Of a stretch of 64,000 bases of DNA, positions 9,218 through 13,879 are shown one piece after another. The position numbers and the translations under genes were made by a program. Positions within the stretch are counted from its first letter, which is position 1, and every line of letters starts with the position of its first letter. This DNA comes from an uncultured Bacilli bacterium (GTDB lineage Bacteria; Bacillota_I; Bacilli_A; RF39; UBA660), in assembly GCA_934167885.1 (NCBI GenBank), contig CAKPMB010000007.1, forward strand, positions 612-64,611, written 5' to 3'. A model generated the notes under the pieces. The model made no database searches, was not told the origin of the DNA, and was given only the letters and a program-made list of their open reading frames with translations.

Positions 9218-10231
9218 TTAATCCTTTAAAAGCCATTCGATAGAATGTTCAATCTTCTTATGACAATACTCACATTCACCTTTTAATAAATCCATCGACG
9301 CTCCACAACTTGGACATTTTATAATATTAGGATAACCTTTATAAGCATTTATATTATCACCGATATGCATTAATGTCCATTCATCATCAACATATTTGCT
9401 AGTAATTTTTTGACCAGTATAATATACTATTCTAACAAAAGCCTTTACTATAACACTTTCTATTCCATCAATATTTACAATATTAAATTCATTGTAATCA
9501 ATAATATCATAATCGATAATATTCTCATTACAATAATACTTTCTTCTAATTTCAAAATTTAGGTTGTTAAAAAACTTTTTTTTATCATAACCAAAATTTT
9601 GCCAAAAAGCTTTTATTTTATCATTCTGCTTTTCCTTATATCTTCTTATTGGGGGCAAAATTAAATAAGCATCAGCAAGATAGAAAAAATAGTATAAGCA
9701 CAAAGACATAATTAAAGTATAAACAAAAATTTTAGCAATATCATATGAATTAAATGTTCGTGAAGTATATTTTATAAAAATAAACGATAAAATAAATGAA
9801 ACTAAAACATCAAAAAACAATGTGATCACTCGATAAGTTTTATTCATTAAAACTAAGTCATAATGATATTTACTTCCTAAATCTTTATCAACATAATCCA
9901 TATTATAATGTGTCTTACAATATGGGCAACCGTTAATAAAATCACTAGTTTTTAAAATGACACCACAATTGGGACATTGATAAGTATTATTTGAAAATTC
10001 TTTACTAATAAAAGTATACTCAATGCGTGAATCAAAAAAATGTTCATCATAAAACAATTTATCATTAACGTAATATTTTTTCTCACAAATAATGCCATTA
10101 ATAACATCATCACTTGTTGGATTATTGCTGTTAATTGTTACAACTTTACCATTTGTTAAATACTTTGTTTCAATAGAAATATTGAATTTTTTTAAATTTT
10201 TTTCTTGAAAATCATTTGATATTAAAACCAT
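9218..10231 (-). CDS. Zinc-ribbon membrane protein (two CxxC...CxxC ribbons flanking TM helices)
   Basis: CPNCGVILKTSDFINGCPYCKTHY and CPSCGASMDLLKGECEYCHKK, with several hydrophobic helices between them. Start taken at MVLISNDFQ, 10 nt after the upstream stop. Confidence 0.55.
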   Translation of the reverse strand: MVLISNDFQEKNLKKFNISIETKYLTNGKVVTINSNNPTSDDVINGIICEKKYYVNDKLFYDEHFFDSRIEYTFISKEFSNNTYQCPNCGVILKTSDFINGCPYCKTHYNMDYVDKDLGSKYHYDLVLMNKTYRVITLFFDVLVSFILSFIFIKYTSRTFNSYDIAKIFVYTLIMSLCLYYFFYLADAYLILPPIRRYKEKQNDKIKAFWQNFGYDKKKFFNNLNFEIRRKYYCNENIIDYDIIDYNEFNIVNIDGIESVIVKAFVRIVYYTGQKITSKYVDDEWTLMHIGDNINAYKGYPNIIKCPSCGASMDLLKGECEYCHKKIEHSIEWLLKD

Positions 10232-10241
10232 AAATATATCC

Positions 10242-10607
10242 CTATCTATTATTATTGTTATTATTGTTGTTATTGTTATTAGAAGATGATCCTCCTGATG
10301 ACCAAGACGATGATGAAGATGGTTCAAAATGAGGGATTACCTTAAAGGAAAAATTAGAAACCTCACAACCATCTACTTTAGGATCAATACATGGTGTATT
10401 AATAAAGTTATTAAAATCATTAGTGCTTGATTGCATATTATTTAAATATAAATTATCTTTATTACCATATATCTTGCCATTTTTATATGTTTCAAGGAAA
10501 GTATAGATTCTTTCTAAATCATCCATTGTTAAATTGTAATATTTTGTTAAATCAATACATCTTTTTTGTCTTAATAATTCTTCATATGTTTCTGGTTCTT
10601 TATTCAT
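10242..10607 (-). CDS. Small hypothetical protein with Ser/Gly/Asn-rich C-terminal tail
   Basis: 121 aa ending ...PHFEPSSSSSWSSGGSSSNNNNNNNNNNNR. Its start overlaps the rSAM stop by 1 nt (ATGA-type coupling). Confidence 0.55.
   Translation of the reverse strand: MNKEPETYEELLRQKRCIDLTKYYNLTMDDLERIYTFLETYKNGKIYGNKDNLYLNNMQSSTNDFNNFINTPCIDPKVDGCEVSNFSFKVIPHFEPSSSSSWSSGGSSSNNNNNNNNNNNR
10247..10290. repeat. Imperfect (AAT/AAC)n trinucleotide repeat inside coding sequence
   Basis: attattattgttattattgttgttattgttatt; encodes an N11 tail on the minus strand. Confidence 0.7.
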
Positions 10608-12337: not shown

Positions 12338-12346
12338 TTTTTCCTC

Positions 12347-13879
12347 CTAATTGTAATAATAATATACAGATTTTCCTGTTTCTTCATAAGAAGTATTATT
12401 ATAGTCACTTTCATATTTTATTGTTATGATTAAATCATTGTTAACCTCATAATATGGATGAAATCTATCTAGTGTAAATGATACCTTACCATCACTATTT
12501 TCAAAGACAATATCAAATTTTCGATACTCATCATCAACCTTTATTTTTTTAACAGTTATTTTGCCTTCTTTTGGAATATTAACAGCACCATAAAGACTAA
12601 TATCAGAGGTTTCGTTATAAGGCGCATTTTTAAGTGTCCATTGCTTAAATTTAGACTCATCAAATAAATTGCTAAAATCTACATCATCAATATTTTTGAT
12701 AATTGTTGGACTATTCTTGAAAGCTCTTTCATTAACCGATACATTATAAGGCAGAAAGATCTTATTTAGCGATGAACAATTTCTAAAAGCAGATGAACCA
12801 ATTTCTCTTAAACGACTATTCTTGGTGAATTTAACACTTGATAAACTGGTCGCATAATAAAAGGCATGACCTCCAATACGTTCAACACTATCAGGAATTT
12901 CAATCTTTTCTAGGGATGAACAGTAAGCAAAACTATCTCCTCTTATTTCTTGAATTTTGCTTGGTAAAGTGATTTCTTTTAAATTTTTAGCTTTGTAAAA
13001 TACTTCACCACCAATATAAGTTATTGAGTCTGGTAATGAAACATGTGTAAGGGATGCACAATTGTAAAAAGAACCACCACCTAAATATTCCAATTTACTA
13101 GGAAGTTTAACGTCTTCTAATAAATAATCATTTTTAAAAGCTTGACCTCTTATTTCTACAATAGAATCTGGTAAAGTTACAGACTTAAGAAAAAACATGT
13201 TAGAAAAGGCATTACCACGCATACTAACGACCGGTTCACCTTTATATGTTGCAGGAATAGTTGCAGTCTTAAAATTAGTTAAGCCAAAAGTATAAAATCT
13301 AACTGCATAACCCGATGCAACTTTTTCATACATTATATGAGGATTAAAAAATATAACCATTGGTAATAAAATAGCTGCAATTAATCCTATAGGATAAAGA
13401 CCACGTAAAGGATCAGTTGTTAAATTATTGCATTTATTAAAAATAATATTCTTCATTTTTTCATTTGGACGTTCTTTAATTTCTTTTGCTAAAGCAGCAT
13501 TTAAATTATATTTTCGACGTTTTTTATTGCAGAAAAACAAAATAATTAAACCAATAATATACGTATATATTGGAAAATGAAAGAATATTAAACAAACGAA
13601 CAAAAAGATTAATACTAAGATAGCAATATTTAAAAATTGCACTTGTTTTAAACTATCATATGGTATTTTCTTAGATTTTGAATCAATATTTAACTTACTT
13701 AGTTCCCTTTGAATATACAATTCAAGCATTTTATTATCTATGTTATTATAAATTGCATCAAAATTATTAATTTTAACAAACATTAAAGGAAATTTATTTC
13801 CACAATTTGGACAAAACTTACTACTTTGTAAAACATTGTTGTTGCATTTAGGACAAATTTTATAATTACTATTATTCAT
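12347..13879 (-). CDS. Zinc-ribbon / transmembrane / BspA-type leucine-rich-repeat protein
   Basis: N-terminal CPKCNNN...CPNCGNKF ribbon, two or three TM helices, then repeated LPDSI..I...AF..C.SL units (BspA-like LRR). Confidence 0.7.
   Translation of the reverse strand: MNNSNYKICPKCNNNVLQSSKFCPNCGNKFPLMFVKINNFDAIYNNIDNKMLELYIQRELSKLNIDSKSKKIPYDSLKQVQFLNIAILVLIFLFVCLIFFHFPIYTYIIGLIILFFCNKKRRKYNLNAALAKEIKERPNEKMKNIIFNKCNNLTTDPLRGLYPIGLIAAILLPMVIFFNPHIMYEKVASGYAVRFYTFGLTNFKTATIPATYKGEPVVSMRGNAFSNMFFLKSVTLPDSIVEIRGQAFKNDYLLEDVKLPSKLEYLGGGSFYNCASLTHVSLPDSITYIGGEVFYKAKNLKEITLPSKIQEIRGDSFAYCSSLEKIEIPDSVERIGGHAFYYATSLSSVKFTKNSRLREIGSSAFRNCSSLNKIFLPYNVSVNERAFKNSPTIIKNIDDVDFSNLFDESKFKQWTLKNAPYNETSDISLYGAVNIPKEGKITVKKIKVDDEYRKFDIVFENSDGKVSFTLDRFHPYYEVNNDLIITIKYESDYNNTSYEETGKSVYYYYN

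Follow-up and report, generated by a model that had tools for sequence, protein, structure and literature searches.

Why would a bacterium encode a radical enzyme in one tight block with a small protein that ends in a run of asparagines and with two membrane proteins? The question is raised by four closely spaced minus-strand genes of an uncultured Bacilli bacterium (contig CAKPMB010000007.1), which lie within the 64-kb stretch of DNA that we analysed as a whole (64,000 nucleotides, hereafter the window; GC content ~25% throughout). The first gene of the cassette, LRR510 (12347-13879), encodes a protein with a zinc ribbon, transmembrane (TM) segments and BspA-type leucine-rich repeats (LRR). 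It is followed by rSAM576 (10607-12337), which encodes a 576-aa radical S-adenosylmethionine (SAM)/SPASM enzyme whose C-terminal domain is specific to its family, by p121 (10242-10607), which encodes a 121-aa protein with the tail GGSSS-N11-R, and by ZnTM337 (9218-10231), which encodes a membrane protein with two TM segments and two CxxC...CxxC ribbons. The spacing is 9 nt, then a 1-nt overlap (TAATG) of the rSAM576/p121 pair, then 10 nt. A coupled four-gene arrangement had been described in a first-pass annotation of the window, and its genes, spacing and domain content were all reproduced here; a scan for promoters and terminators was uninformative in the AT-rich DNA of the window. For ZnTM337 a longer form beginning at a TTG at 10327 is possible and would overlap p121, but we favour the ATG at 10231 because the orthologues measure 335-340 aa. 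We consider it about 60% probable that this operon represents, in gut Firmicutes, a self-contained system spread over several phyla, in which a maturase modifies proteins that carry C-terminal Asn runs.

The class of the enzyme is clear from its domains. rSAM576 has the CX3CX2C motif (C14-x3-C18-x2-C21), which was read from the sequence at 12275-12298 on the minus strand as the site of the radical-SAM [4Fe-4S] cluster and is invariant in alignments A1 and A4. The protein belongs to the superfamily by Radical_SAM (PF04055, 42.1 bits against a cut-off of 29.5) and to the SPASM subgroup by PF13186 (29.3 bits against 21.5) and TIGR04085 (47 against 27). In its SPASM region (11297-11578, minus strand), which includes C319-x2-C322-x5-C328-x3-C332, eight cysteines are invariant across phyla (C254, C260, C276, C319, C322, C328, C332 and C347; alignment A4), and these are enough for two fully ligated auxiliary clusters. 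The anaerobic sulfatase-maturating enzyme (anSME) likewise has two auxiliary clusters and eight conserved cysteines. Because the cluster motif already lies at residue 14, there is no space for an N-terminal recognition element (RRE) of the kind associated with peptides that are ribosomally synthesized and then modified post-translationally (RiPPs). The hydropathy scan found no TM segment in the enzyme, and a PDB sequence search found no relative among solved structures. Beyond the Radical_SAM and SPASM domains, no model in Pfam, NCBIfam or PADLOC scored above its cut-off. The first-pass annotation had taken the enzyme for an unusually long radical SAM/SPASM protein outside the described RiPP classes and had proposed running it against the TIGRFAM and Pfam subfamilies; comparison with NCBIfam and Pfam gave no clean placement, and the protein falls short of every family-specific curated cut-off.

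The C-terminal part, approximately residues 350-576 (10610-11290, minus strand), is without any Pfam or NCBIfam family match. Its polar motifs YGDE-R-KQ-H and TT-LR-YHY-K-NA[FY]YH-Q-NLPF are invariant, also in the phage members described below. A search of 1.84 billion representative sequences with this domain returned only 101 proteins, which were either fragments or proteins of ~580-620 aa with the domain always at the C-terminal end. The extra length is unusual, as had been remarked in the first-pass annotation, but it is not a one-off fusion; it is the architecture of the whole family. An AlphaFold2 model of rSAM576 had an overall pLDDT (predicted local distance difference test) of 71.5, with low values in the cluster-binding loops. 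When the C-terminal domain was modelled alone, the pLDDT was 84.5 and exceeded 90 for most of its residues 50-237, and the core of the domain, which is private to the family, is a predicted beta-sandwich.

The most distinctive member of the cassette is p121. It had no family match in Pfam or NCBIfam and no TM segment in the hydropathy scan, and it appears to be a small cytoplasmic protein with a folded N-terminal domain of ~95 aa. Its C-terminus reads SSSSSWSSGGSSS-N11-R, and the final Ser-(Asn)11-Arg (10245-10283, minus strand) is the hallmark of the system. All 75 extracted orthologues of the window's type end with ...IPHY-PSS-x-SGGSSS-N(9-20)-R or -N (alignment A2), and p121 combines a conserved N-terminal domain with a conserved C-terminal tail. 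Across the families described below, the Asn run contains 6-28 residues (median 14) and is preceded at position -1 by Ser or Thr in 137 of 143 cases. The conserved tails have no Cys, neither the Trp nor the aromatic residue before the run is conserved among the p121 orthologues, and outside the tail no residue is conserved across all types. The feature under selection in the small protein is the C-terminal Ser-(Asn)n run. The first-pass annotation had named the 121-aa protein as a possible substrate, perhaps through a Ser/Trp-rich tail; the protein remains the best candidate, whereas the Ser/Trp stretch does not hold up as the feature. As a side observation, a p121 profile matched in the PDB only engineered fusions of maltose-binding protein (MBP; 3hst, 4jkm, 6cxs and others) through their SSS-N10 vector linker, a precedent for a Ser-polyAsn stretch as a soluble, flexible spacer in vitro.

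Could such a tail be nothing more than low complexity in AT-rich DNA, with neighbours that are coincidental? Asn codons are AT-rich and the GC content of the window is low, but the tail is found in genomes of up to 68% GC, and AAT and AAC codons are mixed in it even there. No other run of six or more Asn exists in the window in any of its six frames, none of ~1,511 other open reading frames (ORFs) in the surveyed loci has a run of seven or more, and both the extreme C-terminal position and the preceding Ser are conserved. We reject compositional chance on the locus survey, the codon mix, the position and the window-wide uniqueness of the run, and regard its probability as negligible.

How constant is the association of enzyme and tail? 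In gut Bacilli alone, rSAM576 has more than 2,000 homologue clusters, and the best 120 homologues are 576-592 aa long, with 72-75% or 98-99% identity at 99-100% coverage. A scan of species-representative genomes gave 220 loci, 80 of which were taken further. Most of these loci belong to uncultured gut Bacilli whose records are titled "Mycoplasma sp. CAG:877", "Clostridium sp. CAG:417" or Candidatus Faecimonas, and some to Lachnospiraceae, including the isolate Waltera hominis. Wherever the genes are present their order is constant: in tblastn searches an LRR510 orthologue lies immediately upstream of the radical SAM gene in 79/80 genomes and a p121 orthologue immediately downstream in 77/80, and a ZnTM337 orthologue accompanies them in 77/80. 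No further gene cluster recurs in more than 9 of the 80 loci. The cassette is conserved and self-contained, and its flanks are unrelated. Conservation of the neighbourhood had been set beforehand as a check on the proposal, along with two outcomes that would speak against it, namely a clean fit of the enzyme to a characterised family with unrelated neighbours and an arrangement found nowhere else; neither came about, since no curated family is reached and the arrangement is strongly conserved.

The system extends well beyond gut Firmicutes. A profile of divergent members retrieved at least 600 further clusters outside the gut Bacilli, annotated merely as "radical SAM protein". The gammaproteobacterial carriers include Pseudoalteromonas, Thalassotalea, Aliikangiella, Psychromonas, Thaumasiovibrio and Thiothrix, and others are the cable bacterium Electrothrix, Myxococcales (Archangium) and Betaproteobacteria (Aalborgicola, Uliginosibacterium and Propionivibrio). 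Pseudoalteromonas, Thalassotalea, Thiothrix, Electrothrix, Archangium and Uliginosibacterium have relatives with 35-45% identity; in six genomes, from isolates or assembled from metagenomes, the adjoining protein of 119-148 aa ends with S-N(11-16)-G or -GNNNG, Archangium being the genome with 68% GC. We then surveyed 87 loci with GC contents of 0.23-0.68, consisting of 80 metagenome loci from a scan with alignment A4 together with these genomes. An ORF with an Asn tail was found on first pass in 79 of the 87; of the eight failures, five were at contig ends, one (L163) was a missed gene call, one (L123) had a shorter N6 tail, and one (L142) was a true absence. The tailed neighbour is thus present in ~81 of 82 interpretable loci. 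At one locus from a rumen or gut metagenome (L181, 1793-2628), two tandem genes for Asn-tailed proteins (147 and 126 aa) follow a single radical SAM gene, an arrangement that recalls the multiple precursor genes of RiPP clusters.

Three architectures can be distinguished. Type I, seen in the window and in other gut Firmicutes, has the order LRR protein, enzyme, Asn-tailed protein and ZnTM protein. Type II, found in Gammaproteobacteria and others, has the enzyme, the Asn-tailed protein and a TM protein of ~270 aa, in either order. In type III, of high-GC beta-, delta- and myxobacterial lineages, a TM protein of ~155 aa precedes the enzyme and the Asn-tailed protein. The tailed proteins of types II and III share homologous N-terminal domains (hhalign probability 97%, E 1e-11). 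Kinship of the three membrane-partner families was considered and rejected, as hhalign found no relation among them; the type-II partner gave only a weak match to GIDE (E 0.033), and neither p121, ZnTM337 nor the proteobacterial partners belong to any family in Pfam, NCBIfam or PADLOC. The flanks of types II and III consist of ordinary, unrelated genes. Common to the three architectures are thus the enzyme, a protein with an Asn tail and a membrane protein of one kind or another. The two constant parts of the system as a whole are the enzyme, which is cytoplasmic and ~580-620 aa long, and the protein with an Asn run, preceded by Ser or Thr, at its very end. The gene set, its domain content, its conservation and the co-occurrence of its members are established by this survey.

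Concerning the membrane proteins in the window, the zinc ribbon of LRR510 spans residues 9-29 (Zn_Ribbon_1, Pfam), its TM segments lie at 82-100 and 160-178 (hydropathy scan), and its assignment as a BspA-type LRR surface protein agrees with a strong match to LRR_5 (E 1.9e-50; PF13306, 170.4 bits against a gathering score of 27.7). The LRR domain of this surface protein is extracellular. The orthologues are variable in length (253 to 774 aa). ZnTM337 has the ribbons CPNC...CPYC and CPSC...CEYC, with two TM segments (135-153 and 165-183, hydropathy scan) between them, although its matches to zinc-ribbon families are weak. As both of its soluble parts carry a CxxC...CxxC ribbon, both are probably cytoplasmic. 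The first-pass annotation had considered the LRR and ribbon proteins as possible substrates or as helpers in export or signalling, and this view needs correction: they are accessories found solely in the Firmicutes version, and their place is taken by unrelated membrane proteins in other lineages and by tail-fibre genes in phages. Some side observations may be added here. At the Thiothrix caldifontis locus (L086, 4301-6016), a gene overlapping the start of the radical SAM gene encodes a zinc ribbon, one TM segment, a periplasmic PBP-like domain and an OmpA domain, a layout of ribbon, TM segment and outside-facing binding domain like that of LRR510, though the proteins are unrelated. At the type-III locus of Uliginosibacterium (L084, 4876-5999), two tandem paralogous TM proteins (162 and 212 aa), both with the motif GPRY(L/V)ICG...YYRN, are encoded upstream of the enzyme. 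In one database protein (P0236, 477 aa) a BspA-type LRR segment is fused to an incomplete enzyme that has lost an internal part, most likely an artefact of assembly or gene calling.

The enzyme family also extends into phages. In a tblastn search of annotated phages and plasmids, full-length relatives of the enzyme (34-35% identity, 98-99% coverage) were found in the Campylobacter phage CAM-P21 and in a prophage carried by a C. coli megaplasmid; one published paper on Campylobacter phage deals with radical SAM proteins that are different and shorter. The module of the CAM-P21 type encodes, in order, a tail fibre (phrog_1162) ending with ...SGSTNNNNY, a 211-aa protein (phrog_10241), the radical SAM enzyme (phrog_1802), a tail assembly chaperone (DUF1353), a fibre-like protein and the tail sheath. 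IMG/VR contributed 17 full-length members. In the phage loci a tail-fibre or fibre-like protein is encoded two genes upstream of the enzyme, and the fibre bodies vary in length and sequence while the Asn tail is retained: in some Campylobacter-type prophages this protein ends with ...ATNNNNY, ...SSNNNNY or ...SCNNNNN, and in large phage contigs with ...TFSNNNNNN(N)LAGNV, ...NNNGNNNNSCSGGW or ...SSNNNNNNRG. The accessory protein encoded between fibre and enzyme is homologous in both phage groups (hhalign probability 96%) and had no relation to any cellular component by hhalign. Residues 9-570 of rSAM576 match positions 49-551 of the 556 in the phrog_1802 profile (E 3.7e-37), which makes it a member of that family, and for the member from the Campylobacter phage the E value is 6e-142. 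Among the libraries searched, phrog_1802 is the sole family that spans the C-terminal domain of rSAM576. It resembles our enzyme family in this full-length profile match, but it differs in being a result of clustering and not a characterised family; it is listed as "radical SAM domain-containing protein" in the category other, with no assigned function or substrate.

The presence of family members in prophages, together with a patchy distribution across phyla and variable flanks, could also suggest a module of anti-phage defence or conflict, with the radical SAM enzyme as the source of a toxic product or a signal and the membrane protein acting as effector. In line with this, the Waltera hominis cassette (L079, 9273-13212) lies beside two AAA_14/DUF4143 ATPase genes and beside DUF2397/DUF2398 genes, which we take to resemble Wadjet defence components; these neighbours suggest that the cassette arrived in a variable region. 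There is also a weak match to a viperin model at the cluster-binding motif: pVip, at 25 bits, was the sole match in PADLOC 2.0, and no component scored above that value, so that the cassette does not qualify as a defence system there. A Pfam census of 116 flanking genes revealed no recurring defence family or other theme, the enzyme is ~70-75% identical over more than 200 species of gut Bacilli, which fits stable inheritance, and the phage copy lies inside a tail-fibre assembly module and not in a moron or immunity region. We therefore regard a defence role as improbable.

Enzyme and C-terminal Asn run stay together across phyla, GC contents, gene orders, partner families and the divide between cells and phages. 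This is the strongest evidence that we have, and an enzyme-substrate relation explains it best; the class of the enzyme argues for an oxidative protein modification initiated by hydrogen abstraction. That the enzyme acts on the tailed protein, at which site and by what chemistry, how its C-terminal domain contributes and which biological role results are all inferred from the sequences. rSAM576 would be a protein maturase of the anSME or peptide-crosslinking type, with two auxiliary clusters besides its single radical-SAM cluster. It would bind the Asn-tailed protein, probably via the C-terminal domain, and abstract hydrogen atoms within or beside the Asn run. The product would be an oxidative modification, for example a crosslink, a dehydrogenation or an epimerisation, possibly made on several Asn in turn. 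The modified protein would then act with the linked membrane protein, in the window ZnTM337 together with the surface LRR protein; the enzyme of the phages would act on the tail-fibre tip.

Several observations weigh against this interpretation. The fibres of other Campylobacter-type prophages end with ...GNNF or ...GNNS, with two Asn only, and one phage locus (L203) as well as the cellular locus L142 have no Asn-tailed neighbour. Homology between the N-terminal domains of types I and II is weak (hhalign probability 41%, E 2.7e-4). In the structural models, confidence is low in the SPASM-region part of rSAM576, and the C-terminal domain matches only generic immunoglobulin-like beta-sandwiches. 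No protease or exporter is linked, which leaves the release of a product unexplained. Finally, co-occurrence is no proof that one protein acts on another, and the claim is drawn from genes.

The tail itself allows a different reading, in which the Asn run is a recognition handle or a flexible tether that the enzyme holds with its C-terminal domain, and the chemistry takes place on the folded domain, on the preceding Ser or on the membrane partner. A run of such variable length is more what one expects of a tag than of a defined core; nearly every run has Ser or Thr at position -1, and Ser, like Cys, is oxidised by enzymes of the anSME type; the polar residues that are invariant in the C-terminal domain (Y, R, K, Q, H and N) would lend themselves to hydrogen bonding with a ladder of Asn; and the SSS-N10 stretch serves as a soluble flexible linker in the engineered MBP fusions. 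On the other hand, the phage tails with two Asn would offer a very weak grip, and outside the tail no residue is conserved across all types. We consider this reading unlikely, and prefer modification within or beside the Asn run. More tentatively, at somewhat less than even odds, the latter could amount to a new post-translational modification specific to homopolymeric C-terminal Asn runs, with a dedicated enzyme gripping the run through its C-terminal domain and converting it, possibly processively. The run might then be crosslinked, epimerised or rigidified and be used both at phage fibre tips and in a membrane-associated cellular system, and that system might extend over hundreds of species, among them Bacilli and Lachnospiraceae that are common in the human gut; we hold each of these parts with the same reserve.

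The family is large and includes several bacterial phyla and at least two phage groups. Radical SAM/SPASM enzymes are, to our knowledge, a rich source of new chemistry in which every newly found class of substrate has so far come with a new type of bond, and the clean signature of a protein ending with Ser-(Asn)n makes the substrate hypothesis directly testable. If the link to tail fibres is true, a radical enzyme would mature a phage receptor-binding protein, of which we know of no report. If the proposal as a whole is true, it would explain a conserved operon of abundant uncultured bacteria of the human gut.

The genes around the cassette in the window may be described briefly. Just downstream (8650-9185, minus strand), a gene for Ogt (methylguanine-DNA methyltransferase) is interrupted after ...GFNPICI; the remainder (...YAYRVIGKNGNLTGYGGG...) lies in another frame, and the usual PCHR active-site Cys was not seen. 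Either the gene is a pseudogene with a frameshift or an alkyltransferase-like variant, or the break is a sequencing error. Directly upstream (13956-15510, minus strand), two genes encode proteins of 189 and 326 aa with Listeria-Bacteroides "Flg_new" repeats, the latter with a Cys-rich C-terminus; Flg_new genes adjoin the cassette in only 3 of the 80 genomes. A 185-aa ORF on the plus strand (7539-8096) has a pattern H-T-H-P...S-K-A-D that by eye resembles the JAB/MPN metalloprotease motif, and a 360-aa ORF followed by a 463-aa multi-pass membrane ORF (16734-19216, minus strand) looks by eye like a DltD/AlgJ-like and MBOAT (DltB/AlgI-like) O-acyltransferase pair.

How, then, does the system compare with those already known? 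The best family matches of the enzyme are all to peptide or protein maturases, but every score is far below its cut-off: anSME (TIGR03942) 85.4 bits against 349.45, with 54.5 against 484 for a second anSME model (PRK13745/PRK13758 set), DynA (NF041298) 84.1 against 450, PapB (NF047865) 72.1 against 340, DarE (NF038005) 55.8 against 650, and the cyclophane-forming maturases GrrM, XyeB, FxsB, YhhB and AmcB 22-55 against 310-445. The tails do not look like the precursors of these enzymes either, since the aromatic residue before the run is not conserved, unlike what is expected for three-residue cyclophanes, and a Cys, as expected for ranthipeptides, SCIFF peptides or sactipeptides, is lacking. 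In the literature library searched by full text, no paper describing the enzyme family or its poly-Asn partner was found.

That the closest families are RiPP maturases raises the possibility of a classical RiPP system, in which the first ~95 residues of p121 would be a long leader and S-(Asn)n the core; once modified, the core would be cut off by a protease encoded elsewhere and leave the cell as a bioactive peptide. The long N-terminal domain followed by a short C-terminal core resembles long-leader precursors, the tandem tailed genes at L181 are precursor-like, and an S8 peptidase adjoins the cassette in one genome (L081). Yet protease, leader peptidase, transporter, exporter and RRE are not conserved in the flanks of any of the ~170 loci, and no PqqD/RRE match was found in the four proteins, nor, with E values of up to 1 admitted, in p121, ZnTM337 or the C-terminal domain. 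The first-pass annotation had likewise noted that the classic companions of RiPP clusters (RRE, peptidase and exporter) are missing, and our survey bears this out at the loci examined. Moreover, the target in phages is a tail-fibre protein with a structural function, no described core resembles an Asn homopolymer whose length varies from 6 to 28, and the constant third partner is a membrane protein outside the exporter families. Given the structural target in phages and the lack of a linked protease or exporter, a released RiPP is the less likely reading, and we consider it slightly more doubtful than a role of the run as a handle.

Modification of a whole protein at its Asn tail would bring the system closer to anSME, which acts on a whole protein in the cytoplasm and not on a leader-core peptide. 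The anSME structure (PDB 4k36) shares with rSAM576 the lack of an N-terminal RRE and the two auxiliary clusters with eight conserved cysteines, whereas rSAM576 differs in its extra C-terminal domain of 230 aa, in its Asn-tailed partner and in having no C/S-x-P/A-x-R motif nearby; no sulfatase is among the 25 commonest Pfam families in the 116 flanking ORFs, and none recurs in the 80 and 87 loci. With the proteusin epimerases (PoyD), which act iteratively in the cytoplasm on a long-leader precursor whose core is Asn-rich and in which Asn side chains stabilise a beta-helix, the comparison is looser: methyltransferases, proteases and an NHLP leader are found there and none of them here, and p121 matched neither NHLP nor Nif11 in Pfam and NCBIfam. 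No proteusin epimerase family came up in these two libraries, which have no model for such enzymes. TigE/TvgB, the cyclopropylglycine synthases, GrrM/OscB (on Gly-rich repeats) and HxsB (on His-Xaa-Ser repeats) modify the same motif many times per substrate and offer an analogy for iterative action on a homopolymeric run, although all of these families are below their cut-offs and the system described here has a single-residue repeat at the extreme C-terminus and a C-terminal domain of its own. In DarE, DynA and PapB (NxxcB type), which are also radical SAM/SPASM enzymes and among which DynA is the best or second-best NCBIfam match, the substrate is a short peptide and not a protein of ~120-150 aa or a tail fibre, and here no Trp or Cys partner residue is conserved in the tails. 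However, DarE, DynA and the ranthipeptide maturases generate the radical at the beta-carbon of Asn, in dynobactin for a Trp-Asn C-C bond and in NxxC peptides for a Cys-Asn thioether, and Asn is therefore a precedented site. The kind of system is thus already known, that of radical SAM/SPASM protein maturases, and what is new is its substrate signature, its C-terminal domain and its presence in phage tail-fibre modules.

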